Shown: one piece after another, positions 31,504 through 57,800 of the stretch
Layout of the letters: each line of letters starts with the position of its first letter
How positions within the stretch are numbered: the stretch's first letter is position 1
Source: Mayamaea pseudoterrestris
Taxonomy: Eukaryota
Length of the DNA: 64,000 nucleotides
Assembly: GCA_027923505.1 (NCBI GenBank)
Contig: BROI01000007.1
Coordinates: forward strand, 1-64,000
Direction: 5' to 3'
Program-made: the position numbers and the translations under genes
The notes under the pieces: model-generated
The model's input: the letters and a program-made list of their open reading frames with translations, nothing else
What the model was told of the DNA's origin: nothing
The model's database searches: none

Positions 31504-31504
31504 A

Positions 31505-34500: not shown

Positions 34501-37441
34501 AGTCCGGTTCCTTGCTTCTTAGCTTCCGCAAATTAACGCGTGAAAACTGAGCGTGTCGCACGCACCGATTGATCAGTACGTCAAGTTCGTCGCCAGTGCG
34601 TGTCGGCGTGTGACGATTGCGGTGCGTGATACCGTCATCATCGAATCGTTCGTCGAAAGATCCATAATCATGATCTCGTTCGTCGAAATCGTCGTGCGCG
34701 TGCTCGACATCGTAAACAGTCGGGTCCGCACGGCACGTCCGACGTCATGATGACAGTCGGATACTTATCCAAATCATCGAACGTGGGTTTCGTCACGTCC
34801 AAGTACACCAGGCCATCGCGAATTGCCAATGGCAAAACGTAGCCTCCAATGTTCGTCGTAATTCGTTGCGTTCCGCCAAACATGGTCGGAATATCGTCGA
34901 CGCGATGTCCCATTGCGCGCAATTGATTCGGGCAATGAATCGTCGGTCCGTCTCGCTTTAAAGCATACTGGTGACACAGAAGCAGAATGGTTTCGCCACT
35001 AAGGGTCTTTGCCAGTCCAGCTGCAGTGCCAATCTTGAGAGCTGGGACAATATGATCGTCAATACCAGTCACATCCACCTCGGCGTTCGTTTCCGAAACG
35101 ACGAGCATGTCTCCTCCGCATAAGCCTCCGTTCGCGCCGCTGTCGATGAGCGCGCCTTCGTTGATCCGCTCGTAGTGTGCGCGATTGACGCGCATACGAC
35201 GATGCATGTTGAAGCTGAATGTACCTCGTCCGGTGTTATCAGTCGTCAACGATCCTGTCACTTGCTGAGTTGTAGTACTCGCATTGTTCGCTTGCAGAAC
35301 CGATCGTGCAGCCGTTTGGACTGACATTCCACTATTGCCGGGCTGAATATTAATCGTGCCAGGAACGCTTGCGTGATCGTTCGCTACAGATTCCGTCGCG
35401 TGACGCTCTTGATGCGCCGCGTTGACTTGCGTCTGCGTCGTAGCCGTGCCTCGTTGGTTGCGCGGTCGCCATCCGTTTTCGGGTGTCTTGGGCGCCGTCG
35501 CACGCTTGTCCTTCAACTGCTTTCGCTGATCGAACTTCATCTCCAACCAGACTTCATCCTTCACGCTCGCGTGAGGTTTCTTCATGATCGCTGCAAATCG
35601 TTCCGCCGATAAGCCGCTTGGAGTCGCGCCGCCATTGCCGCCGCCGCCTCCTTTCGTTCCACTAGACTGCGCTTGATTGATTGTGCGCTTAGTCTTCGTC
35701 GTCGATGGGTGTTTCTTGTCATACTTGATGCAGCACTCTTCTAAGTGCGCGTACAACTGCGCGAAATTGTCTTCCGAGTCGTGTTGCCCCATGTGTTTCT
35801 TGATGGCAATCATTCCGTCAAAACCTGCTAGTGATGCGCTGAATCCTGTGTGCTCGGAGAAAGCGTCGCGTAGCATGTCGTATCGTTGTAAACCTGTCAG
35901 AGCTTCTGCGTCCATTTCGAGCAGCCAGATGACTTTCTTGTAGAACAGTGCAAGAAATTCGATCGTCGGCCGTGACCACTTCTCGGTCAGCCGCATTCCC
36001 TGCAGTTCCGTTCGCGCGCGTTCCTTCTCGATGTGAGCAGTAGCGCCTTCTTCGTATCGCGTTCGCAATCGTTGGTAGACTTTGCGTCCGTCCATCGTCT
36101 TCTTGAACTGTTGTACTGCGAGTGATGCAGACGGAGTTCGACAGTGCGTGAGAAAGATCCTGTATACAAACACATTCTTCTTTGCATACGCCTTCTGTTC
36201 TTTTGGTCCCTTTTCCTTCGGGTCATAATCGTCGTCAAAGACTTCGTGGAAGTCATGCAATGTAGCGATGACTTTCAACTCGGAAATCCACTGTTTCCAC
36301 GAGGAATCCAGCTTCATTTCTTTACAATCCTTCGCCGAGAACTTGATAGACTTCGTAAATTGGTCTGAATACTTCTCGTCGTCTTCGTCGTCGCCGAGGT
36401 CCAGTACGGATGTTGGTGACTGCTTCGTGTCCACGTCCACACTCGTCGGTGGCACCTTGTCGGCCGAGTCAGGCTTCGACTCGTCGCCTTCGTTCGTTAG
36501 CGTGGAGTCCTTGGATTCGTCCTTCTTGGATTCCGTTTCGCTTTCCTTCGCTGGAGGTTTCGCTCCGCTTCCGCTGCCCACGCTCGCAATGTTGCGCGCT
36601 TGGACTCGTTCCTTCGCTCGTGCTGTGACGAACGTCGCCAGCGTTTCGGTGGTCAGTTGCGACCATGTCTTGATGTCCGGCGACTCTTGCGCCAAATACC
36701 ATTCGATCGCGTTCGTGATCGTGCGTTGTTTCATCTTCGTTAGCGAGTGTTCGCTCGTTTCCTGCGTGACATTGTCGCCATCGTCAGTCGTCGTCGTTGT
36801 CGTCGTCGTGACGTTCCACTTCGTCGCGAAATCGTCGTACTCCATCTCAATCAGTTGCGTAAGCGATTCTACTCCGAGTTCGTCAAATAACTCCTTGAAC
36901 TGAGGATCTTGGAAAACGCCTACGTTCTCTTCGTAAACATGCGCAAACGCCGCGTCTTTCTGCGCGCGAGTTTCCGCCATCGTTGTCGTCGTGACAATGT
37001 TCTTGCTATCACCTGCGGAACTTTCCGGGCCAAGAACCAACGTGCGTCCACGTTACTTCGTAAATCAATAGTACTCTTCGTCGATAAAGTCTCTATGCCG
37101 AGGCAATGAGTCTCAAGACAGTGTTAATCTTGTAACTTGTAAATCAAATCGTTGCACCTTTCGCTTGTAGCTGTCCTTGGATGGCCAATCCAAGCTTGCA
37201 GTTGCTACAATACGAGAGACGAATAAATCGCTTTCTTAACTCTTCAAGCTTAGTAAGTCTGCTTGTTTCTACTCTATATCGCACTAGTTTCAGCAATATA
37301 CTCGTTGAATCGCTTCGAAGCCGTCGCTGCCACGCATCACGCGATCGTGAGGCTGTGGTGAGCCGCGAGTGCCGCTGTGTCACCCTATCGGACATTCGGT
37401 GTGACTTGCCCGATTTTCGCTGTTTTCGTTCGCATCCTGCA
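31505..37441 (-). mobile_element. Copia F1 copy 1b (5' LTR 37131-37441); exact 5938-bp tandem duplicate of copy 1a
   Basis: All ORFs are offset by 5938 with identical translations and identical frameshifts. Confidence 0.93.
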
Positions 37442-37738
37442 ACATGCCTTTGCGAAGCAGCTGTCCATTTTCGCCTTACTATTAAGCTCAAGAAGTGCAA
37501 GTTTATGCTGCCTCGCGTGAGCTGGATTGGGCATGATTGGATGGTAAATGGCAATGTGCCTGCTCAATCAAAGTTTGATCTCATACGCCGCTGGGCTATT
37601 CCGACCACTGCTCAAGCCCTCAATGCTTTCATTAGTTTCTGTGGCTTCTATCGCACGTTCATGCCTTATTTTGAGCCTCGAGTCATTCCACTACGGCAGC
37701 TCTGCAAGCAATACAAGCACGCGCCCATTCCCCGTGAT
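37442..37738 (+). pseudogene. Ty3/gypsy reverse transcriptase C-terminal/connection fragment
   Basis: The open frame LTIKLKKCKFMLPRVSWIGHD..GNVPAQSKFDLIRRWAIPTTAQALNAFISFCGFYRTFMPYFEPRVIPLRQL matches the gypsy pattern KC.F...V..LGH...W..P......F.G...YYR.F. Confidence 0.85.
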
Positions 37739-38050
37739 TGCAGGATGCGAACGAAAACAGCGAAAATCGGGCAAGTCACACCGAATGTCCGATAGGGTGA
37801 CACAGCGGCACTCGCGGCTCACCACAGCCTCACGATCGCGTGATGCGTGGCAGCGACGGCTTCGAAGCGATTCAACGAGTATATTGCTGAAACTAGTGCG
37901 ATATAGAGTAGAAACAAGCAGACTTACTAAGCTTGAAGAGTTAAGAAAGCGATTTATTCGTCTCTCGTATTGTAGCAACTGCAAGCTTGGATTGGCCATC
38001 CAAGGACAGCTACAAGCGAAAGGTGCAACGATTTGATTTACAAGTTACAA

Positions 38051-38066
38051 GATTAACACTGTCTTG
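38051..38066 (+). promoter_or_regulatory. Putative primer-binding site GATTAACA(CT)GTCTTG, variant with a 2-nt insertion
   Basis: Lies one base after the 5' LTR; the core matches 46316 and 54237. Confidence 0.7.
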
Positions 38067-38199
38067 AGACTCATTGCCTCGGCATAGAGACTTTATCGAC
38101 GAAGAGTACTATTGATTTACGAAGTAACGTGGACGCACGTTGGTTCTTGGCCCGGAAAGTTCCGCAGGTGATAGCAAGAACATTGTCACGACGACAACG

Positions 38200-41100
38200 A
38201 TGGCGGAAACTCGCGCGCAGAAAGACGCGGCGTTTGCGCATGTTTACGAAGAGAACGTAGGCGTTTTCCAAGATCCTCAGTTCAAGGAGTTATTCGACGA
38301 ACTCGGAGTAGAATCGCTTACGCAATTGATCGAGATGGAGTACGACGATTTCGCGACGAAGTGGAACGTCACGACGACGACAACGACGACGACTGACGAT
38401 GGCGACAATGTCACGCAGGAAACGAGCGAACACTCGCTAACGAAGATGAAACAACGCACGATCACGAACGCGATCGAATGGTATTTGGCGCAAGAGTCGC
38501 CGGACATCAAGACATGGTCGCAACTGACCACCGAAACGCTGGCGACGTTCGTCACAGCACGAGCGAAGGAACGAGTCCAAGCGCGCAACATTGCGAGCGT
38601 GGGCAGCGGAAGCGGAGCGAAACCTCCAGCGAAGGAAAGCGAAACGGAATCCAAGAAGGACGAATCCAAGGACTCCACGCTAACGAACGAAGGCGACGAG
38701 TCGAAGCCCGACTCGGCCGACAAGGTGCCACCGACGAGCGTGGACGTGGACACGAAGCAGTCACCGACATCCGTACTGGACCTCGGCGACGACGAAGACG
38801 ACGAGAAGTATTCAGACCAATTTACGAAGTCTATCAAGTTCTCGGCGAAGGATTGTAAAGAAATGAAGCTGGATTCCTCGTGGAAACAGTGGATTTCCGA
38901 GTTGAAAGTCATCGCTACATTGCACGACTTCCACGAAGTCTTTGACGACGATTATGACCCGAAGGAAAAGGGACCGAAGGAACAGAAGGCGTATGCAAAG
39001 AAGAATGTGTTTGTATACAGGATCTTTCTCACGCACTGTCGAACTCCGTCTGCATCACTCGCAGTACAGCAGTTCAAGAAGACGATGGACGGACGCGAAG
39101 TCTACCAACGATTGCGAACGCGATACGAAGAAGGCGCTACTGCTCACATCGAGAAGGAACGCGCGCGAACGGAACTGCAGGGAATGCGGCTGACCGAGAA
39201 GTGGTCACGGCCGACGATCGAATTTCTCGCACTGTTCTACAAGAAAGTCATCTGGCTGCTCGAAATGGACGCAGAAGCTCTGACAGGTTTACAACGATAC
39301 GACATGCTACGCGACGCTTTCTCTGAGCACACTGGATTCAGCGCCTCACTAGCAGGTTTTGACGGAATGATTGCCATCAAGAAACACATGGGGCAACACG
39401 ACTCGGAAGACAATTTCGCGCAGTTGTACGCGCACTTAGAAGAGTGCTGCATCAAGTATGACAAGAAACACCCATCGACGACGAAGACTAAGCGCACAAT
39501 CAATCAAGCGCAGTCTAGTGGAACGAAAGGAGGCGGCGGCGGCAATGGCGGCGCGACTCCAAGCGGCTTATCGGCGGAACGATTTGCAGCGATCATGAAG
39601 AAACCTCACGCGAGCGTGAAGGATGAAGTCTGGTTGGAGATGAAGTTCGATCAGCGAAAGCAGTTGAAGGACAAGCGTGCGACGGCGCCCAAGACACCCG
39701 AAAACGGATGGCGACCGCGCAACCAACGAGGCACGGCTACGACGCAGACGCAAGTCAACGCGGCGCATCAAGAGCGTCACGCGACGGAATCTGTAGCGAA
39801 CGATCACGCAAGCGTTCCTGGCACGATTAATATTCAGCCAGGCAATAGTGGAATGTCAGTCCAAACGGCTGCACGATCGGTTCTGCAAGCGAACAATGCG
39901 AGTACTACAACTCAGCAAGTGACAGGATCGTTGACGACTGATAACACCGGACGAGGTACATTCAGCTTCAACATGCATCGTCGTATGCGCGTCAATCGCG
40001 CACACTACGAGCGGATCAACGAAGGCGCGCTCATCGACAGCGGCGCGAACGGAGGCTTATGCGGAGGAGACATGCTCGTCGTTTCGGAAACGAACGCCGA
40101 GGTGGATGTGACTGGTATTGACGATCATATTGTCCCAGCTCTCAAGATTGGCACTGCAGCTGGACTGGCAAAGACCCTTAGTGGCGAAACCATTCTGCTT
40201 TTGTGTCACCAGTATGCTTTAAAGCGAGACGGACCGACGATTCATTGCCCGAATCAATTGCGCGCAATGGGACATCGCGTCGACGATATTCCGACCATGT
40301 TTGGCGGAACGCAACGAATTACGACGAACATTGGAGGCTACGTTTTGCCATTGGCAATTCGCGATGGCCTGGTGTACTTGGACGTGACGAAACCCACGTT
40401 CGATGATTTGGATAAGTATCCGACCGTCATAATGACGTCGGATGTGCCGTGGGACCCGACTGTTTACGATGTCGAGCACGCGCACGACGATTTCGACGAA
40501 CGCGATCACGATTATGGATCTTTCGACGAACGATTCGACGATGACGGTATCACGCACCGCAATCGTCACACGCCGACACGCACTGGCGACGAACTTGACG
40601 TACTGATCAATCGGTGCGTGCGACACGCTCAGTTTTCACGCGTTAATTTGCGGAAGCTAAGAAGCAAGGAACCGGACTATAATGCTCTTCGGCCGTACCT
40701 CGGATGGGTCCCGACTGAGCGCGTTCAACAGACTTTACGTCACACAGAAGCATGGTATCATCTCAGCGAACATCCGCGATTACCATTTCGACACCTCACG
40801 AAATCACGATTTCCGGCCGCGAACGTTCAGCGGTTGCGCGAACTATTCGCCACGGACACGATACACTCTGACACGCCAGCTTTGGATGATGGAATTCTAG
40901 GGCATGGGGGAGCTACTAAGATGCAGCTCTTTGTTGGACGAGAAAGTTTTTACACGCGCGGCTACCCGATGAAGTCGGAAAGCGAAATGTCAAACGCGTT
41001 AGAGGATTTTATCCGCGAAGTGGGCGCTCCTAACGGACTGCTCAGCGACAATGCCAAGTCGGAGACTGGCAAGGCTGTGAGGGATCTCTGTCGGATGTAC

Positions 41101-43992
41101 AATATTCCTCAAGTGACCACAGAACCGGGTCATCCAGAACAAAATCCATGCGAACGTCACACGTCGCACATTAAGCCAATGATGGAGAACCTCCAACGAG
41201 ATTCGGGTTCGCCAGGCCATTGCTGGGTTTTGCTGATTAAATTCGTAATCATGATACTGAACGTCCTCGCGACGAAATCGCTGGGATGGCGCACGCCAAC
41301 GGAAGTTGCGTTCGGAAATTTGCCGGATATTTCGCCTTTGTTACATTTCAAGTGGTGGGAACCGGTCACGTTTGAGGCGCAGGGGAGTTTTCCCTCGGCG
41401 GTACGATCTGGCAACGGCCGATTCGTGGGCATCGCAGAGAATAGCGGTCCGCACATGACTTTTCTCGTTCTGACGGACGACACGCTTCAGGCGATTCCGC
41501 GCTCCAACGTGGTCTCGCGCAGCTACTTGTTACCACGAGAGTTGCCTTCCTTCCCTGAGTCTGGAGGGGAGATTTCTGAAGAAGCTACACGCGCAAGCGA
41601 GCGAAATTTTGAAACTCCAGATCTCGCGACAGGACGCTACCATAGCACGAATGCGACAGAAAGTAGTCACGACAACTACGAAGGAAACGACGACGAAACG
41701 ATTCCGATGGCGAACCACGCCAACGTACCAGCGAAGTTCTTCAGAAGGGCTGAGCAAGAATCAGGGAATAAATGCCCTCTGTTCTCTCCAAGCGAACTCA
41801 TCGGACGCACGTTCGTAAGGGAACACGAAAACGGTCAGAAAATGCGAGCGACTGTATGCGAATATATCGAAGTACGCGATAACGAGCTACTCGAAACGAC
41901 GAAAGGTTTCCTGATCCAGATGGGAGAGGAGCCAGCGAAAGACTTAATAAGTTACAACGAACTGTCGGATTTAATCGAACGACAGATGGACGAAGATATA
42001 CGAAACGATCCGGCGACTCAGTGGGTATTCACGAAGGTAATCGGACACGAGCTTAATTTGAAACCGAACGATCCGACATACAAAGGAAGTTCAAGTAACG
42101 TTCTCGTCGAATGGACCGACGGAACGACGACGTGGGAGCCTCTCGCGATCATGAAGAAGGACGATCCGATAACGATCGCAGAGTATGGACTCAAGCACGG
42201 CTTACTCGACAAGCCAGGATGGAAGCAGCTGGAACATTACACTCGGAAGCGAAAGAAGTTTCGACAGATGGTGACAGCAGCGAAACGAAAATCGAAAGCA
42301 AACGGCGTACGCTACAAATTCGGCGTAAGGTTGCCGCGCAATTATAAAGATGCGAAAGCTCTCGACGAGATCAACGGCAACACGCTGTGGACGGATGCGA
42401 TTCGAACGGAATTAAATCAGATAAATGATTACGACACGTTCGCAGATCAAGGAGTCGGTAAGGTTATGCCGGCGCCGTGGAAACGAATAAACGTGCACAT
42501 GATATTCGATGTCAAGCACGATTTGCGACGGAAAGCACGACTCGTCGCAGGAGGACATATGACAGAGCCGCCGAAGGATTCAGTTTACTCGGGCGTTGTG
42601 TCATTGCGAAGTCTACGAATGGTAGCGATGTTAGCGGAACTCAACGGTCTGGAACTGTGGGCAGCTGACGTCGGCAACGCATACTTGGAAGCGAAAACGA
42701 AAGAGAAGGTTTATATCGTGGCGGGTCCGGAGTTCGGAGAGCTTGAAGGTCACACGCTCACGATCGTGAAGGCACTATATGGTCTTCGCATGTCAGGCGC
42801 ACGCTGGCACGAGCACTTTGCAGACACGCTCAGCGACATTGGCTTCACGCCATGTATCGCAGAACCGGACGTGTGGATGCGCGATAAAGGCACGCACTAC
42901 GAATACGTTTGTGTGTATGTCGACGATTTAGCGATAGCGATGAAGAATCCGAAGGAACTAACGGATCTTTTAATTGAGAACTACAACTACAAGTTGAAGG
43001 GCGTCGGTCCATTGGCATATCATTTGGGCGCAGACGTTTGGCGAGACGACGACGGCGTACTCTGCTTCGGAGCGAAGAAGTACGTCACAAGACTACTAGC
43101 GAACTACAAAGAAATGTTCGGCGAGGAACCGCGACCGCAGACAAGTCCACTACGCGACGGCGATCATCCGGAACTCGACGAAACGAAAGAACTTGACGAC
43201 GACGGAATTGCGAAGTATCAATCGATAATTGGTGCGTTGCAATGGGCAGTAAGTTTATGTCGATTCGACATTCACTGCGCTGTCATGACTATGGGGAGAT
43301 TCCGAGCTGCGCCACGAGCGGGGCACTTGGAACGGTTGAAGCATATTTGCGGATACTTACGACGATACCCGGATGGAGCGATTCGATTCAACGTTTCGAT
43401 TCCAACGGACGAGCGATACGCGACAGTTGACAAGATGGATTGGGATTACAGTGTGTACGGCAAGATCTGCGAAGAGCTTCCGTGGAACATGCCCACGCCG
43501 CGCGGCAAGGCGGTGCGAATGTCAACGTTCGAAGATGCGAACCTGTACCACGATTACACGACGGGACGGGCAGCGATGGGCATGCTACACATGTTGAATG
43601 GAACAGTCGTCGATTGGTTTTCGAAACGCCAAGCGACGGTCGAGACGGCGACGTACGGCTCGGAGTTTGTAGCAGCGAGAGTGAGCACGGAGCAGATCAT
43701 GGATCTTCGCTTCACGCTACGCATGTTGGGAGTTCCGCTCGACGGACCTTCATGGATGTTTGGAGACAACAAGTCGGTAACGCAAAGCAGCAACCTACCG
43801 CACTCTAGTCTGACGAAGCGACACAATGCACTGGCATTTCACCGTGTACGCGAAGCGATTGCGGCGGGAATTATTAATTTCAACCACATCATGGGAACGA
43901 CAAACCCGGCGGATGTACTTACCAAGTTTCTTCCACGGGCTACGGCAAGCAAGCACTTAAAGAACCTGCTCTTCAAGGAATCTAACTATTAG
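38200..43992 (+). CDS. Gag-Pol polyprotein (1930 aa from the first ATG): gag, aspartic protease, integrase, chromodomain-like module, RT, RNase H
   Basis: LIDSGANGG (PR); ATDT..SDNAK..QNPCE (IN DDE); VLVEWTDGTTTWEP (chromo-like); RKARLVAGG, ADVGNAYL, KALYGL, YVDD (RT); FEDA, TVETATYGSE, GDNKS, PADVLTK (RH). IN precedes RT, the copia order. Confidence 0.97.
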   Translation: MAETRAQKDAAFAHVYEENVGVFQDPQFKELFDELGVESLTQLIEMEYDDFATKWNVTTTTTTTTDDGDNVTQETSEHSLTKMKQRTITNAIEWYLAQESPDIKTWSQLTTETLATFVTARAKERVQARNIASVGSGSGAKPPAKESETESKKDESKDSTLTNEGDESKPDSADKVPPTSVDVDTKQSPTSVLDLGDDEDDEKYSDQFTKSIKFSAKDCKEMKLDSSWKQWISELKVIATLHDFHEVFDDDYDPKEKGPKEQKAYAKKNVFVYRIFLTHCRTPSASLAVQQFKKTMDGREVYQRLRTRYEEGATAHIEKERARTELQGMRLTEKWSRPTIEFLALFYKKVIWLLEMDAEALTGLQRYDMLRDAFSEHTGFSASLAGFDGMIAIKKHMGQHDSEDNFAQLYAHLEECCIKYDKKHPSTTKTKRTINQAQSSGTKGGGGGNGGATPSGLSAERFAAIMKKPHASVKDEVWLEMKFDQRKQLKDKRATAPKTPENGWRPRNQRGTATTQTQVNAAHQERHATESVANDHASVPGTINIQPGNSGMSVQTAARSVLQANNASTTTQQVTGSLTTDNTGRGTFSFNMHRRMRVNRAHYERINEGALIDSGANGGLCGGDMLVVSETNAEVDVTGIDDHIVPALKIGTAAGLAKTLSGETILLLCHQYALKRDGPTIHCPNQLRAMGHRVDDIPTMFGGTQRITTNIGGYVLPLAIRDGLVYLDVTKPTFDDLDKYPTVIMTSDVPWDPTVYDVEHAHDDFDERDHDYGSFDERFDDDGITHRNRHTPTRTGDELDVLINRCVRHAQFSRVNLRKLRSKEPDYNALRPYLGWVPTERVQQTLRHTEAWYHLSEHPRLPFRHLTKSRFPAANVQRLRELFATDTIHSDTPALDDGILGHGGATKMQLFVGRESFYTRGYPMKSESEMSNALEDFIREVGAPNGLLSDNAKSETGKAVRDLCRMYNIPQVTTEPGHPEQNPCERHTSHIKPMMENLQRDSGSPGHCWVLLIKFVIMILNVLATKSLGWRTPTEVAFGNLPDISPLLHFKWWEPVTFEAQGSFPSAVRSGNGRFVGIAENSGPHMTFLVLTDDTLQAIPRSNVVSRSYLLPRELPSFPESGGEISEEATRASERNFETPDLATGRYHSTNATESSHDNYEGNDDETIPMANHANVPAKFFRRAEQESGNKCPLFSPSELIGRTFVREHENGQKMRATVCEYIEVRDNELLETTKGFLIQMGEEPAKDLISYNELSDLIERQMDEDIRNDPATQWVFTKVIGHELNLKPNDPTYKGSSSNVLVEWTDGTTTWEPLAIMKKDDPITIAEYGLKHGLLDKPGWKQLEHYTRKRKKFRQMVTAAKRKSKANGVRYKFGVRLPRNYKDAKALDEINGNTLWTDAIRTELNQINDYDTFADQGVGKVMPAPWKRINVHMIFDVKHDLRRKARLVAGGHMTEPPKDSVYSGVVSLRSLRMVAMLAELNGLELWAADVGNAYLEAKTKEKVYIVAGPEFGELEGHTLTIVKALYGLRMSGARWHEHFADTLSDIGFTPCIAEPDVWMRDKGTHYEYVCVYVDDLAIAMKNPKELTDLLIENYNYKLKGVGPLAYHLGADVWRDDDGVLCFGAKKYVTRLLANYKEMFGEEPRPQTSPLRDGDHPELDETKELDDDGIAKYQSIIGALQWAVSLCRFDIHCAVMTMGRFRAAPRAGHLERLKHICGYLRRYPDGAIRFNVSIPTDERYATVDKMDWDYSVYGKICEELPWNMPTPRGKAVRMSTFEDANLYHDYTTGRAAMGMLHMLNGTVVDWFSKRQATVETATYGSEFVAARVSTEQIMDLRFTLRMLGVPLDGPSWMFGDNKSVTQSSNLPHSSLTKRHNALAFHRVREAIAAGIINFNHIMGTTNPADVLTKFLPRATASKHLKNLLFKESNY

Positions 43993-44600
43993 GTATGACT
44001 TGAGGGGAGTTGCAGGATGCGAACGAAAACAGCGAAAATCGGGCAAGTCACACCGAATGTCCGATAGGGTGACACAGCGGCACTCGCGGCTCACCACAGC
44101 CTCACGATCGCGTGATGCGTGGCAGCGACGGCTTCGAAGCGATTCAACGAGCATATTGCTGAAACTAGTGCGATATAGAGTAGAAACAAGCAGACTTACT
44201 AAGCTTGAAGAGTTAAGAAAGCGATTTATTCGTCTCTCGTATTGTAGCAACTGCAAGCTTGGATTGGCCATCCAAGGACAGCTACAAGCGAAAGGTGCAA
44301 CGATTTGATTTACAAGTTACAACCTCCTTCGTTTGGAAGCGACTCGCTCACTCAGTTTTGGTCCCGCGGCAATTTTTCCAACGGAATCAAATTCCCTGCT
44401 TTCTTGTGGTTCTCATGACATCTTGCTGGTTGCAATGCAACGCCTCCTTGGTCCCGCGAATCCAGCGCAAAAATGGTGATGCCATGAAAATCGATGTAAA
44501 AACCCGGAAACCAAGGAACCGCGCTTTTTAGCATGGGATGTGGCACGACCCAGTTCAATCCAGTCCCGTGATCACCCGCTCGCGCGAGTGACAAGAAGAG

Positions 44601-45095
44601 CGGCCAGTCCTTTGTCCTAGCCGACATACCGGCTTGCTGTCATCCAGCCCATCTAGGCAGCTAGCTAGTTGGAGAGACGAGTTGGTGTTAACAGGCAGTT
44701 TACTTGCCAGCCCCCCCAGGCCCAGTGTCGCGAGGGTGGGTGAGGAGGGTGAAGCTTATGAGACTATCTAATGAAGTACTGGAACTGCTTGACTCGGATG
44801 TCTGCAGTTGACTTCGTGCAACAGAATGAGGAGACGAGAATCGACGTCGCGAGGCTTTCGCCGCGCGGAGCGTAGGCCGGGGTATCAGGTAAAGTCTCGA
44901 GTAGGTGCATGTGCTTCTTGGTGTTCAATTGTCCGGTGCGGCTTTCTTCCCCCTGCACCGGAATGACGGCCAGTCCTTTGTCCTAGCCGACATACCGGCT
45001 TGCTGTCATCCAGCCCATCTAGGCAGCTAGCTAGTTGGAGAGACGAGTTGGTGTTAACAGGCAGTTTACTTGCCAGCCCCCCCAGGCCCAGTGTC
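44601..45095. repeat. ~129-bp direct repeat pair (44601-44729 and 44967-45095)
   Basis: CGGCCAGTCCTTTGTCCTAGCCGACATACCGG...CCAGGCCCAGTGTC occurs twice. Confidence 0.85.
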
Positions 45096-46315
45096 ACTCC
45101 AACAGCCTCCCATTTCGGAGGAAGTCTGAGAAATCAGGCCCGCTTATCTTGTGTGTTTTGGATTCCTTCAGTACCGACTCGATGTCCTTGATGATGGTCA
45201 GCTTAGGAATGCCGTGGTAGGCGATCGTCGGGGAGTGACTTGATGGCAGCGATGACTGGAAGCTTCATGAACTGTCGTTGTTGGCCGGTCTTCTGCTTGT
45301 ACATGCTTTATGGCGAGTTGTCTTCGCGTCATCTTCGCGTGACATTAGGTCCGTCGGGAGGATCATCTTCGGCGGCGGTCATGTTGTTGATTGATTGGTG
45401 CGGGATGAATATATACCGCGAGAATAATCAAGTGTGTCGATTCTATCCGGCGATCTTACTAATTCGACTCGGTCTTCAATTCTCTGTGTGTATGAAGCCT
45501 AGGAAATGAGCGAGGGATGTCCGCGCCAATGTGGGCGAGGAGCAGCGGGTGGTCGTCACCAGCGCCGAGAGAAGTTGATTGTAAGACCAAGACTGTGTGA
45601 TCTGACACGATGCAAGTTCCAGTTCGTGCGGCTGCAACGATTCCTCACCCTCTGTGAGTCGGTTTCCAAGTGGCGGGATGATCAGTCCTTTACCTTGGTT
45701 TATCCTACAGGGTCTTATCTCTAAAACACTAGTTGATTAAGCAGTTCTCTAGAAAGTGAGTTGATTTACGATCGGTCGAGCGGTGATCAGATGGCTCTTT
45801 CAAGACCATTCCTGATAGTGAATACTAATCTTAGACTGTCGTGCCTGCGGCTGGCACACATGCAATATTTCAATGGCGTAGTTGTGAGGATGCTTTGTTG
45901 GTGCTCTGCACTAGCATCTTCGGAACAGAAATCCAAGAGGCATTTTACTATTGGAGAGTAACTACCACAACACAGATGTTGAGATCGACCAAGGAGCAAC
46001 TTTTGCAGGATGCGAACGAAAACAGCGAAAATCGGGCAAGTCACACCGAATGTCCGATAGGGTGACACAGCGGCACTCGCGGCTCACCACAGCCTCACGA
46101 TCGCGTGATGCGTGGCAGCGACGGCTTCGAAACGATTCAACGAGTATATTGCTGAAACTAGTGCGATATAGAGTAGAAACAAGCAGACTTACTAAGCTTG
46201 AAGAGTTAAGAAAGCGATTTATTCGTCTCTCGTATTGTAGCAACTGCAAGCTTGGATTGGCCATCCAAGGACAGCTACAAGCGAAAGGTGCAACGATTTG
46301 ATTTACAAGTTACAA

Positions 46316-46329
46316 GATTAACAGTCTTG
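46316..46329 (+). promoter_or_regulatory. Putative primer-binding site GATTAACAGTCTTG (complement of a tRNA-Asn GUU anticodon arm)
   Basis: Adjacent to the 5' LTR; the reverse complement is CAAGA-CTGTTAA-TC. Confidence 0.78.
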
Positions 46330-46462
46330 AGACTCATTGCCTCGGCATAGAGACTTTATCGACGAAGAGTACTATTGATTTACGAAGTAACGTGGACGCA
46401 CGTTGGTTCTTGGCCCGGAAAGTTCCGCAGGTGATAGCAAGAACATTGTCACGACGACAACG

Positions 46463-49400
46463 ATGGCGGAAACTCGCGCGCAGAAAGACGCGGCGTTTGC
46501 GCATGTTTACGAAGAGAACGTAGGCGTTTTCCAGGATCCTCAGTTCAAGGAGTTATTCGACGAACTCGGAGTAGAATCGCTTACGCAATTGATCGAGATG
46601 GAGTACGACGATTTCGCGACGAAGTGGAACGTCACGACGACGACAACGACGACAACTGACGATGGCGACAATGTCACGCAGGAAACGAGCGAACACTCGC
46701 TAACGAAGATGAAACAACGCACGATCACGAACGCGATCGAATGGTATTTGGCGCAAGAGTCGCCGGACATCAAGACATGGTCGCAACTGACCACCGAAAC
46801 GCTGGCGACGTTCGTCACAGCACGAGCGAAGGAACGAGTCCAAGCGCAACATTGCGAGCGTGGGCAGCGGAAGCGGAGCGAAACCTCCAGCGAAAGAAGG
46901 CGAAACGGAATCCAAGAAGGACGAATCGCAGGACTCCGCTAACGAACGAAGGCGACGAGTCGAAGCCCGACTCGGCCGACAAGGTGCCACCGACGAGCGT
47001 GGACGTGGACACGAAGCAGTCACCGACATCCGTACTGGACCTCGGTGACGACGAAGACGACGAGAAGTATTCAGACCAATTTACGAAGTCTATCAAGTTC
47101 TCGGCGAAGGATTGTAAAGAAATGAAGCTGGATTCCTCGTGGAAACAGTGGATTTCCGAGTTGAAAGTCATCGCTACATTGCACGACTTCCACGAAGTCT
47201 TTGACGACGATTATGACCCAAAGGAAAAGGGACCAAAGGAACAGAAGGCGTATGCAAAGAAGAATGTGTTTGTGTACAGGATCTTTCTCACGCACTGTCG
47301 AACTCCGTCTGCATCACTCGCAGTACAGCAGTTCAAGAAGACGATGGACGGACGCGAAGTCTACCAACGATTGCGAACGCGATACGAAGAAGGCGCTACT
47401 GCTCACATCGAGAAGGAACGCGCACAAACGGAACTGCAGGGAATGCGGCTGACCGAGAAGTGGTCAAGGCCGACGATCGAATTTCTCGCACTGTTCTACA
47501 AGAAAGTCATCTGGCTGCTCGAAATGGACGCAGAAGCTCTGACAGGTTTACAACGATACGACATGCTACGCGACGCTTTCTCTGAGCACACTGGATTCAG
47601 CGCATCACTAGCAGGTTTTGACGGAATGATTGCCATCAAGAAACACATGGGGCAACACGACTCGGAAGACAATTTCGCGCAGTTGTACGCGCACTTAGAA
47701 GAGTGCTGCATCAAGTATGACAAGAAACATCCATCGACGACGAAGACTAAGCGCACAATCAATCAAGCGCAGTCTAGTGGAACGAAAGGAGGCGGCGGCG
47801 GCAATGGCGGCGCGACTCCAAGCGGCTTATCGGCGGAACGATTTGCAGCGATCATGAAGAAACCTCACGCGAGCGTGAAGGATGAAGTCTGGTTGGAGAT
47901 GAAGTTCGATCAGCGAAAGCAGTTGAAGGACAAGCGTGCGACGGCGCCCAAGACACCCGAAAACGGATGGCGACCGCGCAACCAACGAGGCACGGCTACG
48001 ACGCAGACGCAAGTCAACGCGGCGCATCAAGAGCGTCACGCGACGGAATCTGTAGCGAACGATCACGCAAGCGTTCCTGGCACGATTAATATTCAGCCAG
48101 GCAATAGTGGAATGTCAGTCCAAACGGCTGCGCGATCGGTTCTGCAAGCGAACAATGCGAGTACTACAACTCAGCAAGTGACAGGATCGTTGACGACTGA
48201 TAACACCGGACGAGGTACATTCAGCTTCAACATGCATCGTCGTATGCGCGTCAATCGCGCACACTACGAGCGGATCAACGAAGGCGCGCTCATCGACAGC
48301 GGCGCGAACGGAGGCTTATGCGGAGGAGACATGCTCGTCGTTTCGGAAACGAACGCCGAGGTGGATGTGACTGGTATTGACGATCATATTGTCCCAGCTC
48401 TCAAGATTGGCACTGCAGCTGGACTGGCTAAGACCCTTAGTGGCGAAACCATTCTGCTTTTGTGTCACCAGTATGCTTTAAAGCGAGACGGACCGACGAT
48501 TCATTGCCCGAATCAATTGCGCGCAATGGGACATCGAGTCGACGATATTCCGACCATGTTTGGCGGAACGCAACGAATTACGACGAACATTGGAGGCTAC
48601 GTTTTGCCATTGGCGATTCGCGACGGCCTGGTGTACTTGGACGTGACGAAACCCACGTTCGATGATTTGGATAAGTATCCGACTGTCATCATGACGTCGG
48701 ACGTGCCGTGGGACCCGACTGTTTACGATGTCGAGCACGCGCACGACGATTTCGACGAACGAGATCACGATTATGGATCTTTTGACGAACGATTCGACGA
48801 TGACGGTATCACGCACCGCAATCGTCACACGCCGACACGCACTGGCGACGAACTTGACGTACTGATCAATCGGTGCGTGCGACACGCTCAGTTTTCACGC
48901 GTTAATTTGCGGAAGCTAAGAAGCAAGGAACCGGACTATAATGCTCTTCGGCCGTACCTCGGATGGGTCCCGACTGAGCGAGTTCAACAGACTTTACGTC
49001 ACACGGAAGCATGGTATCATCTCAGCGAACATCCGCGATTACCATTTCGACACCTCACGAAATCGAGATTTCCGGCCGCGAACGTTCAGCGGTTGCGCGA
49101 ACTATTCGCCACGGACACGATACACTCTGACACGCCCGCTTTGGATGATGGAATTCTAGGGCATGGGGGAGCTACTAAGATGCAGCTCTTTGTTGGACGA
49201 GAAAGTTTTTACACGCGCGGCTACCCGATGAAGTCGGAGAGCGAAATGTCAAACGCGTTAGAGGATTTTATCCGCGAAGTGGGCGCTCCTAACGGACTGC
49301 TCAGCGACAATGCCAAGTCGGAGACTGGCAAGGCTGTGAGGGATCTCTGTCGGATGTACAATATTCCTCAAGTGACCACAGAACCGGGTCATCCAGAACA

Positions 49401-52251
49401 AAATCCATGCGAACGCCACACGTCGCACATTAAGCCAATGATGGAGAACCTCCAACGAGATTCGGGTTCGCCAGGTCATTGCTGGGTTTTGCTGATTAAA
49501 TTCGTAATCATGATTCTGAACGTCCTCGCGACAAAATCGCTGGGATGGCGCACTCCAACGGAAGTTGCGTTCGGAAATTTGCCGGATATTTCGCCTTTGT
49601 TACATTTCAAGTGGTGGGAACCGGTCACGTTTGAGGCGCAGGGGAGTTTTCCCTCGGCGGTACGATCTGGCAACGGCCGATTCGTGGGCATCGCAGAGAA
49701 TAGCGGTCCGCACATGACTTTTCTCGTTCTGACGGACGACACGCTTCAGGCGATTCCGCGCTCCAACGTGGTCTCGCGCAGCTACTTGTTACCACGAGAG
49801 TTGCCTTCCTTCCCTGAGTCTGGAGGGGAGATTTCTGAAGAAGCTACACGCGCAAGCGAGCGAAATTTTGAAACTCCAGATCTCGCGACAGGACGCTACC
49901 ATAGCACGCATGCGACAGAAAGTAGTCACGACAACTACGAAGGAAACGACGACGAAACGATTCCGATGGCGAACCACGCCAACGTACCAGCGAAGTTCTT
50001 CAGAAGGGCTGAGCAAGAATCAGGGAATAAATGCCCTCTGTTCTCTCCAAGCGAACTCATCGGACGCACGTTCGTAAGGGAACACGAAAACGGTCAGAAA
50101 ATGCGAGCGACTGTATGCGAATATATCGAAGTACGCGATAACGAGCTACTCGAAACGACGAAAGGTTTCCTGATCCAGATGGGAGAGGAGCCAGCGAAAG
50201 ACTTAATAAGTTACAACGAACTGTCGGATTTAATCGAACGACAGATGGACGAAGATATACGAAACGATCCGGCGACTCAGTGGGTATTCACGAAGGTAAT
50301 CGGACACGAGCTTAATTTGAAACCGAACGATCCGACATACAAAGGAAGTTCAAGTAACGTTCTCGTCGAATGGACTGACGGAACGACGACGTGGGAGCCT
50401 CTCGCGATCATGAAGAAGGACGATCCGATAACGATCGCAGAGTATGGACTCAAGCACGGCTTACTCGACAAGCCAGGATGGAAGCAGCTGGAGCATTACA
50501 CTCGGAAGCGAAAGAAGTTTCGACAGATGGTGACAGCAGCGAAACGAAAATCGAAAGCAAACGGCGTACGCTACAAATTTGGCGTAAGATTGCCGCGCAA
50601 CTATAAGGATGCGAAAGCTCTCGACGAGATCAACGGCAACACGCTGTGGACGGATGCGATTCGAACGGAACTAAATCAGATAAATGATTACGACACGTTC
50701 GCAGATCAAGGAATCGGTAAGGTTATGCCGGCGCCGTGGAAACGAATAAACGTGCACATGATATTCGATGTCAAGCACGATTTGCGACGGAAAGCACGAC
50801 TCGTCGCAGGAGGACATATGACAGAGCCGCCGAAGGATTCAGTTTACTCGGGCGTTGTGTCATTGCGAAGTCTACGAATGGTAGCGATGTTAGCGGAACT
50901 CAACGGTCTGGAACTGTGGGCAGCTGACGTCGGCAACGCATACTTGGAAGCGAAAACGAAAGAGAAGGTTTATATCGTGGCAGGTCCGGAGTTCGGGGAG
51001 CTCGAGGGTCACACGCTCACGATCGTGAAGGCACTATACGGTCTTCGCACGTCAGGCGCACGCTGGCACGAACACTTTGCAGACACGCTCCGCGACATTG
51101 GCTTCACGCCGTGTATCGCAGAACCGGACGTGTGGATGCGCGATAAGGGCACGCACTACGAATACGTTTGTGTGTATGTCGACGATTTAGCGATAGCGAT
51201 GAAGAATCCGAAGGAACTAACGGATCTTTTAATTGAGAACTACAACTACAAGTTGAAGGGCGTCGGTCCATTGGCATATCATTTGGGCGCAGACGTTTGG
51301 CGGGACGACGACGGCGTACTCTGCTTTGGAGCGAAGAAATACGTCACAAGACTATTAGCGAACTACAAAGAAATGTTCGGCGAGGAACCGCGACCGCAGA
51401 CAAGTCCACTACGCGACGGCGATCATCCGGAACTCGACGAAACGAAAGAACTTGACGACGACGGAATTGCGAAGTATCAATCGATCATTGGTGCGTTGCA
51501 ATGGGCAGTAAGTTTATGCCGATTCGACATTCACTGTGCTGTCATGACTATGGGGAGATTCCGAGTTGCGCCACGAGCGGGGCACTTGGAACGGTTGAAG
51601 CATATTTGCGGATACTTACGACGATTCCCGGATGGAGCGATTCGATTCAACGTTTCGATTCCAACGGACGAGCGATACGCGACAGTTGACAAGATGGATT
51701 GGGATTACAGTGTGTACGGCAAGATCTGCGAAGAGCTTCCGTGGAACATGCCCACGCCGCGCGGCAAGGCGGTGCGAATGTCAACGTTCGAAGATGCGAA
51801 CCTGTACCACGATTACACGACGGGACGGGCAGCGATGGGCATGCTACACATGTTGAATGGAACAGTCGTCGATTGGTTTTCGAAACGTCAAGCGACGGTC
51901 GAGACGGCGACGTACGGCTCGGAGTTTGTAGCAGCGAGAGTGAGCACGGAGCAGATCATGGATCTCCGCTTCACGCTACGCATGTTGGGAGTTCCGCTCG
52001 ACGGACCTTCATGGATGTTTGGAGACAACAAGTCGGTAACGCAAAGCAGCAACTTACCGCACTCTAGTCTGACGAAGCGACACAATGCACTGGCATTTCA
52101 CCGTGTACGCGAAGCGATTGCGGCGGGAATTATTAATTTCAACCACATCATGGGAACGACAAACCCGGCGGATGTACTTACCAAGTTTCTTCCACGGGCT
52201 ACGGCAAGCAAGCACTTAAAGAATCTGCTCTTCAAGGAATCTAACTATTAG
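46463..52251 (+). CDS. Gag-Pol polyprotein of F1 copy 3, with frameshift(s) at ~46845-46940 (possibly sequencing error)
   Basis: ORFs 46403-46942 and 46741-52251 together reproduce the copy 2 protein; there is a net 4-bp loss in one short noisy patch. Confidence 0.9.
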
Positions 52252-53910
52252 GTATGACTTGAGGGGAGTTGCAGGATGCGAACGAAAACAGCGAAAATCG
52301 GGCAAGTCACACCGAATGTCCGATAGGGTGACACAGCGGCACTCGCGGCTCACCACAGCCTCACGATCGCGTGATGCGTGGCAGCGACGGCTTCGAAGCG
52401 ATTCAACGAGTATATTGCTGAAACTAGTGCGATATAGAGTAGAAACAAGCAGACTTACTAAGCTTGAAGAGTTAAGAAAGCGATTTATTCGTCTCTCGTA
52501 TTGTAGCAACTGCAAGCTTGGATTGGCCCTCCAAGGACAGCTACAAGCGAAAGGTGCAACGATTTGATTTACAAGTTACAAACTTGAAGCTTCCTATTGG
52601 TACGAGAGACCTGTCGCCCAAGAGGCCGAGGCACACCCGGACGCAGCGCAACCGGATGCGGCCCAACTGGGCGAGGAACAAGCGGGCGAGGAGCAAGCGC
52701 ATCCAGTTCAATTAGCGCGATTCGAAGGGCATCTACCACCCATCGATGTCAACCTTATCCTCAACGCATGCGAATGGTATAACATGCACGAAGGAGTCCT
52801 GAGCTCCAAACTATGGTTGGAACTTGATTTACGCAAGCTCAAAAAGTTCCAGACTACACTCGTCGAACAAGAAAGCGGTTGAAAGCGCGAAGAGATGCGC
52901 TACATCCTCGAGTCCAAGAAGAAGGAAGCCAAGCTACTTGCCAAGCAACTCGAAAATGAGAATAAGAAGGCTGAGAAGGCCGACAAGGAAGCAGATGCCA
53001 AGGGTCGATTCTTGAACATCAAGACGAAGCAAGATCACAAGGACTACAAAATGTTTCAGCATCCCCATGGGTGGTTGAGCTGGAGCGTGTCTACTAAGGC
53101 ACTAGCCAAGCTCCATGGCTGTTCTAATGTACTCGACAGCAAGTACGTACCAGTCACGGAAGAAGAGAAGGAAGAATTCAAGGACCAGCAGATCTTCATG
53201 TACACTGCGTTTCGCAATTGTCTCAAAGTACCCGGATACCAAGCGCTCCTCATGAAGTACGCTGACAAGTCTGACGCCCAAGGCATCTATCGCGAACTCG
53301 CGACCAATTTTGGTTCCGGCGAGTTAGCTACCATCCAAGCGAACGAACTACAAGCCAAGCTTGCAATGATTCGCCTAGATTCGACCCGAGGCACAAGCTC
53401 TACAACATTGAAGAATCCTGAAGAGTTCCGTCCTGGAGTGACGGATGACAAGAAGAAGTACTACTGGCTCCGAGCTGCAGTGGAAGGCGATGAAGAGTTC
53501 AGCCACACATGCACGACATTTGACCAGCACTTAGCATTTGAATGACGACGTATCGTCAGTGCAAACGGTGATCCAGAAGCCGTCGAAACGGAAGATTATG
53601 ACTATCTTTTTGTCTTATTGTCCGCGCAAGCTCTGCGCATCGACAACAAGAACGCCAAGTTGAACAAGGGCAAGAAGGGTGCCGACCGCCAAGCGAACAA
53701 CGTGAACACTTCCGGTCAAGGACATGGCAGTGGACACAATTCTGGACATGGCGGAGGACGCGGCAGCCAAAGCCAACGCCGCGCTGGATGAGACGGTGGA
53801 CGTGGCACCCAAGCGGGCCGCGGATCCGGAGGATGAGGCTCTTCCACACCACTACCAGCTGCCGGTACGCAAGCTCATCAAGAACAATTCCCCGGTGATT
53901 ATCTGAACTT

Positions 53911-54809
53911 TGACACAATATTATTGAGTTGAGTTGACCTGCGTCTTATGACAAGACGGTTAGCTACCTGTGTTTTGTATGCATTTAATCCTGTGCAGGG
54001 TTGAGTCACACTTGTGACCGAATCCTCACATACATGAGTGAAATCGCTGACGATCGAGGCGTGAACCTCGACCGTGAACCCAGTGAGAACGAGAAAGAAG
54101 CGCACGAGTAGAGTAGCGAGTAACATGCACTATTCTAGCAATTGAGTTTGTTTGTTTGCTTTACGCTGGACGAAGAGGTTGATCGCTCCGAGTCCATTGT
54201 AGTCGCTGGAATAAGTAGTTTGATGTTTATCGCGTAGATTAACAGTCTTCAGCTGGTCTTGGACCTGAGAGAGCTGTGCGAAAGAGAGAGAGTGAAAGAA
54301 TCGAGAAATTGAGGAGAGAAAAAGAGCAGATTCCTTGCGGCGTCGTCAATCCGAATACTTGACACAATATTATTGAGTTGAGTTGACCTGCGTCTTATGA
54401 CAAGACGGTTAGCTACCTGTGTTTTGTATGCATTTAATCCTGTGCAGGGTTGAGTCACACTTGTGACCGAATCCTCACATACATGAGTGAAATCGCTGAC
54501 GATCGAGGCGTGAACCTCGACCGTGAACCCAGTGAGAACGAGAAAGAAGCGCACGAGTAGAGTAGCGAGTAACATGCACTATTCTAGCAATTGAGTTTGT
54601 TTGTTTGCTTTACGCTGGACGAAGAGGTTGATCGCTCCGAGTCCATTGTAGTCGCTGGAATAAGTAGTTTGATGTTTATCGCGTAGATTAACAGTCTTCA
54701 GCTGGTCTTGGACCTGAGAGAGCTGTGCGAAAGAGAGAGAGTGAAAGAATCGAGAAATTGAGGAGAGAAAAAGAGCAGATTCCTTGCGGCGTCGTCAATC
54801 CGAATACTT
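53911..54809. repeat. Exact 449-bp tandem duplication (LTR + PBS + leader)
   Basis: 53911-54360 is repeated at 54360-54809, including the same degraded LTR end. Confidence 0.92.
54237..54249 (+). promoter_or_regulatory. Putative primer-binding site GATTAACAGTCTT of family F2 (repeated at 54686)
   Basis: Directly follows the F2 LTR and is identical to the F1 copy 3 PBS although the LTRs are unrelated. Confidence 0.78.
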
Positions 54810-57800
54810 CGCACGCGCGAGGCGTACAGCAATGAAAGCCGACCGAGCGGTTGTGTGGAGAGGACTTGCGGATCCAATTATCATGGTTTCAACTGCAGCT
54901 TCGCTTCTCTGCACGACCTTTCGGACGAGACATCCAAGAAGCTTCTTGTTTTGGAATGTAACCACCACTACCCAGATGTTGAGATTGACCAAGGAGCTTG
55001 AAGCCCCCAGTGTCGAGCAAGCTGCCATGCCAGCGCTGGCAAGAAGAAGGCGCGCAACCCGACGATGCGCAGCCGACGAGCCGGCCGAAGAACCGAGAAG
55101 GACCGCAAGAGAACGATACGAAAGACACTAGCACCAGTTCGGGAACCTCATCCTCGATGCATGCGAATGGTTTACCATGCACGACGGACCCCGAACACCA
55201 AGAAATGGGCGTTGCTGAACATAGGCAAGCTTCCGACGATACCCGGTTCTCGCGGAAAAATCAAAGGCGGAAGCGTGAAGAAGGATACTACGTGCTCGAG
55301 TCGAGCGAAGCAGAAGCCTTAACTCGCAAACCGAAATAGATGCGAAGGCCGAGAAGGCCGAAAAAAGGAAGAAGATGCCAGGGTCGTTTCTCGAACCTCA
55401 AGACGAAACGAGACTACAAGGAAAACTACAATCAACATCCCCACCGTGGTTTGGAGCGCGCCCGTACCAAGGCAATCGCCAAACTCCATGGCTGTTCTAA
55501 CGTGCTTTCGACAGCAAGTACGCATTACCAGTCACGGAAGAAGAGAAGATTAGAATTCGAGAATCAGCAAGTCTTCAGTACACTGCGTTTCGCATCTCGA
55601 AGTCCTGACGCGCGCTCTGATGAAATGGCGACAAGTCTGACGCTCAAGCGTCTATTAATTTCGCGACCACCAGTGGACCAGCATGGATGTTCGGCGACAA
55701 CGAAAGTGTCAAGAAGTCAACGATCCGCAATCGACACTACTCCCTAAGCGACCACAATCCGTTCCGCTGGCCAGGCAAGAGAGCACTTCGAGCAACCACC
55801 AAGTTCTTGCCGCATGCCACGTTCCGACCCCTGATCATTCCGATTCTTTTCTGGAAGGGTGATACGGCAAACCGATCGTTGTCACAAGCCTAGATCAAGG
55901 GGGATGACACAATATTATTGAGTTGAGTTGACCTGCGTCTTATGACAAGACGGTTAGCTACCTGTGTTTTGTATGCATTTAATCCTGTGCAGGGTTGAGT
56001 CACACTTGTGACCGAATCCTCACATACATGAGTGAAATCGCTGACGATCGAGGCGTGAACCTCGACCGTGAACCCAGTGAGAACGAGAAAGAAGCGCACG
56101 AGTAGAGTAGCGAGTAACATGCACTATTCTAGCAATTGAGTTTGTTTGTTTGCTTTACGCTGGACGAAGAGGTTGATCGCTCCGAGTCCATTGTAGTCGC
56201 TGGAATAAAGGTTCGTCTGATATTATCGTGTCAAACTTTGAACAGTTGTTGCAAGCCCCCTGGTCGTACATGTCGTATGAATGACTCGGCCGACTTAACG
56301 AGGACGAGTACGCTCAGCTCATGGCTTAACGTGAAGCCGTCCCAAGACCCGCCACAACAAGACGCGTGAACAACGGCAATTGCGCGAATAACCAGCAGTC
56401 ACAAGCGGCTTCCTTGGTGCCTGGTACAATCTTGTATCAGAATGACGCTGTCTCGATCGCTCCGACGACAGCCACTCAAGGTGCACCGGACGACATGATT
56501 AGATGCTTCCTCGCAAACGCTGCGTCGTCTCACACTCAAGCTGCGAATAACACCCAGCAAGAGTTTTGTGGCGCACATGGAACGAGGCATGGAGTGCGCC
56601 ATTGATAGCTGCAACAGACGGAGCCAAGGACAACGGTGACCGTGGTCGAGACTCGCTGGAAGTGACATGAGAATCTTGAGTACTACCAAACACACGTGTA
56701 ACGTGACAGGTTTGAGCGACCACATGGTTCGAGACCTCCAAGTTGGAATTGGCGTCGCATTGATCGAGACTCGGACTGGACCTATCATTGGTCAGTTCAA
56801 CCAGTATGCTTTGTACGACGGTGTTGAATCCGTTCATGCTCCATCGCAGCTTCGTTCGTTTGGACATCTGATTGACGACGTTGCTCACTCCCAGAATGGA
56901 GCACAAGCCATTGTCACCAGTTGTGGCAAGGCCATCCCCTTGGCGATCCGTGACGGTTTGCCTCATATGGATATGCGTCCACCGACCGACGCAGAGTTGG
57001 AAATGTATCCGACGGTCATTTTCTCTGCGGACACCCTTTGGGATCCGGCGGAGTTGGATAATGAATGGAACCAAAAGGAACTTGAGTTTAATCATTGCTT
57101 CGACGACTTGGAAGACAACCACGGTTTCGTCGACACCCGTATGGATGACTTCGGCAACGCCACCTAATGGAACAATATGAACTCAGTGGAACGTGTGGTG
57201 CAGCATGTCGATCGCAATAGGGCAGATACGACGCGCCAAGTCCATGCACGACGCATCATGCCACAAGAACCTGACTACCAAGCCCTCCAACCTTATCTTG
57301 GCGACACGCCACTTGAATGAGTCAAGCGCACATTGAAGAATACGACACAGTTTTTCCGTGCATCAACACACACCCCATTTTGCCAACACTTTAAGTCGCG
57401 ATTCCCTGCCGCCAACGTGGTTCGTTTCCATGACGATACGGTGACAGATACCTGATTCTCCAAGGAGGCCACCTTTAACGACGGAATTTGCAGACATGGC
57501 GGATGCAAGATGATGCAATTGTTTGTCAGCAAGAAGAGTTTGCTGACAAAGGGGTACCCACTGAGAACCGAGAGTGATATGCCCATGGCGCTCGAAGACT
57601 TCATTCGAGACATTGGCGCTCCCGACTTGCTCATTAGCGATAACTCGAGTGCAGCTCGGGAAGCAAGTTGAAACCTTGTTGCGATTCTACGCGATTCGTG
57701 ACCAACAGAGCGAGCCCGGATACCAGAACCAGAACCCTGCCGAGCGTTGCATCCAAGAAGTCAAGTAATCTGTCCAGAACATCATGAACCGTACAGGCGC

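Follow-up and report, generated by a model that had tools for sequence, protein, structure and literature searches.

The 11-nucleotide motif GATTAACAGTC is a real primer-binding site (PBS) of the hemivirus type, with tRNA-Asn(GUU) as its predicted primer, and is common to two unrelated Copia families of the diatom Mayamaea pseudoterrestris and to most of a large environmental clade. We estimate at roughly 0.8 the probability that the motif is the minus-strand PBS of Copia (Pseudoviridae-type) elements and is used in hemivirus-type priming by a 3'-truncated tRNA-Asn(GUU). The position of the motif at the LTR edge, its strand-specific conservation, its pairing with the arms of real tRNA-Asn genes, and the lack of any partner for self-priming are directly seen. 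The two families, F1 and F2, lie in the window, which is the whole 64,000-nucleotide stretch of DNA that was analysed.

Copia elements of the window and their primer-binding sites

Self-comparison of the window identifies four copies of F1, named C, B, M2, and M1. Copy C occupies positions 46003-52581 of the forward strand and is bounded by 313-nt LTRs that are 99.4% identical. Its 5' LTR (46003-46315) has the form TTGCAGG...GTTACAA. The start of its 3' LTR (52269-52581) adjoins a polypurine tract, GAGGGGAG (52261-52268, forward strand), which was read from sequence, and AACTT (or ACTT) is duplicated on both flanks of the element. Copy B spans positions 37738-44322 of the forward strand. The ends of the F1 LTR were set by aligning its four copies plus flanks; in the self-comparison, the LTR at 46003-46315 is 99.4-99.7% identical to those at 52269-52581, 37738-38050, and 44010-44322. 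Copies M2 (31502-37443) and M1 (25564-31504) are truncated, lie in tandem on the reverse strand, and are 99.98% alike. The M1/M2 pair (25564-37443) forms a direct tandem with a 5.94-kb period, arranged head-to-head with copy B. The first 5 kb of M1 and M2 are only about 1% off copies B and C, and the last ~1 kb, the RT/RNase H part, is about 11% off with many indels.

The polyprotein ORF of copy C (46741-52251, forward strand) encodes 1836 residues and is the sole intact F1 ORF in the window. According to tblastn, the ORF of copy C is unbroken and those of copies B, M1, and M2 are broken, with frameshifts near residues 36 and 62 in copy B. Pfam places an RVT_2 domain at residues 1330-1541 (E 3e-25) and, ahead of it, an rve domain at residues 825-885, whose E of 5.6e-4 does not reach the Pfam cut-off. 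Since the integrase precedes RVT_2 within one polyprotein, F1 has the Ty1/Copia-type domain order; its two LTRs, target-site duplication, and polypurine tract are the structural features of a Ty1/Copia element. The last 637 residues of the polyprotein, which were the part searched, are 99% identical to a hypothetical protein of Mayamaea pseudoterrestris.

The sequence GATTAACAGTCTT is present in exact form at three sites of the window, 46316-46328, 54237-54249, and 54686, and has no other window match with up to two mismatches on either strand. The PBS of F1 copy C, AGATTAACAGTCTTG, extends over positions 46315-46329 of the forward strand and contains the conserved core at 46316-46326. One extra A separates the CA of the F1 LTR from the 11-mer. 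The four copies of the F1 LTR agree through ...GTTACAA; the 5' copies then continue into the motif, and the two 3' copies into unrelated flank. A test of chance occurrence within the window is weak, with three matches versus 1.25 expected and at least three matches in 15 of 100 shuffles. The question of chance is decided by the relatives described below.

Among the F1 copies, the uninterrupted motif is found only in the intact copy C. The PBS of copies B, M1, and M2 reads GATTAACA-CT-GTCTTG, a form with a 2-nt insertion, which is found at 38051 in B and, on the reverse strand, at 37129 in M2 and 31191 in M1. The resulting variants are located at 38051-38066 on the forward strand in copy B (GATTAACACTGTCTTG), and at 37114-37129 in M2 and 31176-31191 in M1 on the reverse strand. 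Because of the insertion, the site is judged not to be under current constraint in these three copies. Over the first 5 kb, B and M2 differ at 41 sites, C and B at 47, and C and M2 at 69. As B, M1, and M2 group closer together and their ORFs are all broken, the CT insertion appears to be a defect acquired within a single lineage in decay. Repair of the PBS from a tRNA, considered as the source of the clean site in copy C, was rejected, since the insertion can simply be derived in the B and M copies.

F2 (53911-56233, forward strand) is short, lacks RT, and is non-autonomous. It is preceded by the target-site duplication AACTT (53906-53910). The first tandem copy of its 5' LTR (53911-54236) reads TGACACAAT...CGCGTA and is followed by the first copy of the PBS, AGATTAACAGTCTT (54236-54249). 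A second, 100% identical LTR copy (54360-54685) and a second PBS copy (54685-54698) follow with a 449-nt period, all on the forward strand. The perfect tandem duplication (53911-54809) comprises the LTR, the PBS, and a 110-nt leader. The 3' LTR (55905-56233, forward strand) has a polypurine run, AAGGGGGA, upstream and ends in ...ATTATCGTGTCA (GTGTCA), after which AACTT recurs. The first 304 nt of the 5' and 3' LTRs of F2 are identical. The tail of the 5' LTR, of about 22 nt, is diverged and can still be aligned with the tail of the 3' LTR up to the base before the motif. Such a mismatch is unexpected after one clean round of reverse transcription; a recombinant or a later conversion may account for it.

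F1 copy C and F2 are both nested in a third, decayed Copia element, whose PR/INT and RT/RH pieces (56652-57996 and 60223-61261) have 36-62% amino-acid identity to F1. A preliminary description of this DNA reported the motif directly after the 5' LTRs of F1 (46316) and F2 (54237), and degenerate versions of it in the decayed host element (45735) and possibly in a relic at the left end of the window (3634-3645). The F1 and F2 sites are borne out, as both are exact and located at the LTR edge. The two LTRs were rightly called unrelated, since comparison of F1 and F2 LTRs and leaders yields nothing beyond 7-10-nt matches with E of at least 0.83, and the sequence confirms that neither PBS starts with TGG. 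The two degenerate sites are rejected. Two indels are required to match the motif at 45735, and the window contains no LTR partner for this site; the only likeness of its upstream region is that of positions 45904-45997 to the F2 leader (79%). The left relic has no tblastn match to the F1 protein, no Pfam match for nine of the minus-strand ORFs of at least 70 residues in 1-3700, and no resemblance to 44323-64000 in blastn or tblastx. The third exact copy at 54686 and the CT insertion in copies B, M1, and M2 had been overlooked.

Two groups of tandem repeats accompany the elements. An array inside the decayed host Copia (58085-60120) is built of ~220-330-nt units with 13-nt sub-repeats. In tblastn, five of its units resemble F1 residues 1709-1745 weakly on the minus strand (51-59% identity, E ~1e-4 to 1e-3), and the satellite may have grown out of a retrotransposon fragment. 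To the left of the Copia nest, positions 3700-25000 hold about 20 kb of ~180-nt satellite arrays with related ~350-nt units, which suggests a pericentromeric or otherwise heterochromatic region.

Conservation of the motif in environmental relatives

Metagenome contigs searched with a profile built from F1 and 20 homologues gave 609 matching stretches, of which 585 were relatives. The best 80 of the 585 were analysed and gave 79 loci with 32-64% amino-acid identity. Many of the contigs have k-mer-long terminal overlaps and the order pol-LTR-PBS-gag, like repeats assembled as circles. A protein-level search of viral contigs for relatives found none.

Of the 79 loci, 39 contain the exact 11-mer, with 40 occurrences in total, all on the element strand. 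On the opposite strand it occurs 0 times, and 0.10 occurrences per strand are expected in the 436,150 nt of these loci. It directly follows the LTR-terminal CA in 36 of the 40 occurrences, and TA in the remaining four. Where at least 900 nt follow the end of pol, the 11-mer is present with at most one mismatch in 35 of 47 loci (31 exact, four with one mismatch), 270-893 nt downstream. Three more informative loci (L165, L169, and L170) carry it upstream of gag, and shorter loci have the motif in 6 of 32 cases. The 41 loci with the motif fall into 35 LTR-end clusters, with 32-60% amino-acid identity to F1. The preliminary description had proposed tabulating the 20 nt behind 5' LTRs across families, and the presence of the 11-mer beside 35 LTR-end clusters upholds the conservation that it expected.

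The LTRs of locus L122 delimit the motif precisely. Its 5' LTR ends in ...gagttcaCA and is followed by GATTAACAGTCGTA, and its 3' LTR ends in ...gagttcaTA and is followed by unrelated flank. The likeness thus ends exactly before the motif, as expected of a PBS.

Nine of the 47 informative relatives are without the Asn-type motif. Eight of them (L125, L131, L133, L147, L153, L157, L171, and L189) have no such motif of any kind. The ninth, L137, has CA followed by GATTAAAAGTC (318-328) at the position of the PBS, a sequence complementary to an arm of the tRNA-Lys(UUU) type. This Lys-type site is one base off the Asn-type core, and L137 is a possible example of a primer switch by a single substitution.

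The anticodon triplet is invariant: it is GTT in 45 of the strand-specific matches to an arm-shaped pattern. The two bases after the core vary in the relatives, being GC in 21 cases, GT in six, TT in six, AC in four, and TC in three. Both F1 and F2 have TT, versus 6 of 40 occurrences in the relatives, and this shared TT would fit a host-specific stem AAGA.

Pairing with tRNA-Asn(GUU) and the proposed priming

The complement of the core, GACUGUUAAUC, consists of two stem pairs and a 7-nt loop, CUGUUAA, with GUU at its center. The PBS is self-consistent in this respect, as GA at its bases 1-2 pairs with TC at its bases 10-11, which a stem around a 7-nt loop demands. With the loop at tRNA positions 32-38, the first PBS base is opposite C40. 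In F1, the complementarity is longer: positions 46313-46329, 17 nt that include the last CAA of the LTR, complement the whole arm CAAGA/CTGTTAA/TCTTG.

Genuine tRNA-Asn genes contain this arm. Among 118 viral-contig loci with AAGACTGTTAATCT, 32 are tRNA-Asn(gtt) genes according to ARAGORN, with the motif as anticodon arm, and on inspection 14 of these 32 carry the full arm implied by F1. Similarly, 29 of 113 prokaryote-genome loci with the 17-nt arm are tRNA-Asn(gtt) genes; the other 84 are close to the chance level in 596 Gb (~69 calculated). A printed tRNA-Asn of the E. coli type also holds the 11-nt core (PMC13363220, appendix). The pairing was scored against these viral, prokaryotic, and E. 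coli-type tRNAs. They bear out the earlier recognition of the reverse complement as the anticodon arm of tRNA-Asn(GUU), and the likening of its register to copia and Ty5 is equally sustained, since the first PBS base pairs with nt 40, as for hemiviruses (PMC1181622). The site adjoins the 5' LTR, complements an anticodon stem-loop with the primer end at nt 40, and has no match to a tRNA 3' end, as judged with non-host tRNA-Asn.

According to ARAGORN, neither the window nor the 79 relative loci contain a tRNA, and Rfam at the gathering threshold gives no match in the window. The first 614 nt of viral contig L089 are a giant-virus-like tRNA cluster with 36% GC. Its tRNA-Asn has eukaryotic-looking D and T arms and an anticodon arm of exactly CAAGA/CTGTTAA/TCTTG. 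None of the contigs from four host sequencing runs aligned to the tRNAs of this 614-nt cluster.

We propose that tRNA-Asn(GUU) would be 3'-truncated at nt 40, two bases beyond the anticodon loop. Its anticodon stem-loop, from nt 27 or 30 to nt 40, would anneal to the 11-14 nt directly 3' of the 5' LTR, and reverse transcriptase would extend the 3'-OH of the fragment into U5-R. By analogy with copia and Ty5, the primer is probably a cleaved tRNA fragment. The arm of the host tRNA-Asn is predicted to be (C)AAGA/CUGUUAA/UCUU(G). The tie between transposition and regulated tRNA cleavage that the preliminary description suggested is speculative.

The base before the 11-mer bears on where the primer ends. 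In F1 and F2 this base is an A that is complementary to base 12 (T), and F1 is complementary over the whole 17-nt arm, as would be expected if an intact tRNA-Asn paired via its anticodon loop and was cut afterwards, or if the host primer ended at nt 41 instead of nt 40. Fungal Helenus sequences, in which C precedes the 11-mer and base 12 is G (PMC10886601, supplement), point the same way, and a review of Ty3 attributes the formation of the Ty5 primer end to host RNase P (PMC5371799). In 31 of 40 relatives, however, base 12 is G or A and lacks complementarity to the preceding A of CA or TA. Therefore, the common boundary is placed at nt 40, and we consider both an end at nt 41 and cutting after pairing unlikely.

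The F1 site can also form a 5-bp hairpin with the LTR end, and its role as a PBS is read from the sequence. It could be a conserved cis element acting as an integrase end or in packaging or dimerisation, with an incidental likeness to a tRNA arm. This explanation is less probable still. The motif is outside the LTR and cannot be an integrase end, because the 3' LTRs are without it; the hairpin is not kept past 2 bp in the relatives, and the LTR is followed by no alternative PBS candidate. The invariant GTT triplet and the use of the same motif by unrelated fungal TRIMs (PMC10886601, supplement) further argue against a cis element. The least probable explanation, which we regard as very improbable, is Tf1-type self-priming, in which the element's transcript would itself provide, at its 5' end, the partner of the site. 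The preliminary description named such pairing as grounds for abandoning tRNA priming, and a search of the F1 and F2 LTRs found no evidence supporting it. The longest exact complement of the PBS in its own LTR measures 5 nt in F1 and 6 nt in F2, which equals the mode of 300 shuffled LTRs. Self-priming is discarded because this complement is no better than chance, and the window offers no further match to the motif at up to two mismatches on either strand.

Significance and comparison with known half-tRNA-primed elements

The mechanism itself is not new. The part for which no published description was found is its use by diatom Copia, with which a stramenopile host and a large clade join the half-tRNA-primed Copia elements. 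The Asn-type site, reported so far as one switch in rust-fungus TRIMs, can be the site that most members of a lineage carry. Diatom Copia gain a defined PBS, and annotation tools keyed to matches with tRNA 3' ends will miss such sites. The label "CoDi-like" for these elements comes from the preliminary description. In the paper that defined CoDi (Maumus 2009, PMC2806351), the term "tRNA" occurs 0 times and the lone "PBS" is a buffer; no PBS of a diatom element is given in the text of that paper or of PMC5445492. A literature search for the PBS of diatom Copia, judged largely by titles and the beginnings of abstracts, apart from figures and PDF supplements, found no description. A search for the motif as a retrotransposon PBS, judged mostly by title, returned phage, primer, and unrelated titles, none of them on retrotransposons.

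A broader proposal is tentative, and we hold it to be more doubtful than not. The whole environmentally abundant diatom-type Copia clade might be fixed on a tRNA-Asn half primer, and the triplets after the core may track host stems. The triplet that follows the invariant 11-mer belongs to one of a few classes (GCA, GTA, TTG, ACA, TCG, and others). If these triplets mirrored variants of the host tRNA-Asn stem, the PBS would be a host barcode for metagenome-assembled retrotransposons. Under the same proposal, one base change in the PBS could be enough for a switch of primer, since the frame GA-CUNUUAA-UC is common to the arms of Asn(GUU), Lys(UUU), and Lys(CUU).

Hemiviruses start cDNA synthesis at the 3'-OH of nucleotide 40 (Gao et al. 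2005, PMC1181622). A half-tRNA derived from tRNA-iMet is the established primer of copia, Ty5, Osser, and 1731 (PMC1181622, PMC5371799). Like Drosophila copia, yeast Ty5, Osser, and 1731, to which they are likened by their priming site, the present elements belong to the Copia superfamily and have the nt-40 register. Those four use initiator tRNA-Met, whereas F1, F2, and the relatives use predicted tRNA-Asn(GUU).

The kind of site is already in print, in the reports on FunCo1, on plant lineages, and on Helenus, and its exact core in the report on Helenus. The preliminary description took priming of this kind to be undescribed, which does not hold, as Kojima 2024 (PMC10886601) reports a tRNA-Asn-GTT site with the same 11-mer. 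In that study, rust-fungus Helenus TRIMs and their Copia partners have anticodon-loop PBSs of tRNA-Tyr, Ile, Asp, and iMet, and tRNA-Asn-GTT was chosen once in Helenus elements; one list of the text has tRNA-Asp, and another has tRNA-Asn-GTT. The supplementary FASTA contains the exact 11-mer six times, for example as cGATTAACAGTCGAA, which opens internal parts. Helenus thus has an identical 11-mer core, and its target-site duplications are 5 bp long. The bases after the core are GAA in Helenus versus TTG or TTC here. Helenus elements are fungal and non-autonomous and have tRNA-like LTRs, whereas the present clade is large, autonomous, and found in a diatom and in environmental samples. The Asn-type site is a single switch among mostly iMet-type sites in Helenus, and the majority state here.

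The fungal Copia element FunCo1 carries ATTAAGAGTCT, which matches tRNA-Lys internally (Donnart et al. 2017, PMC5445492). Its site is one base off the present core, opposite the first anticodon base. The FunCo1 primer is Lys(CUU) and its hosts are fungi, in contrast to Asn(GUU) and a diatom host here. In a survey of plants, Bianca is assigned 1/2tRNA-Ile, and Osser, Bryco, and Gymco-II are assigned 1/2tRNA-Met (Neumann et al. 2019, PMC6317226). In this survey, the primer type is characteristic of the Copia lineage, and tRNA-Asn appears only among 3'-end primers, in 2% of elements. The present elements resemble Bianca, Osser, Bryco, and Gymco-II in having a half-tRNA PBS, and differ from them in the tRNA.
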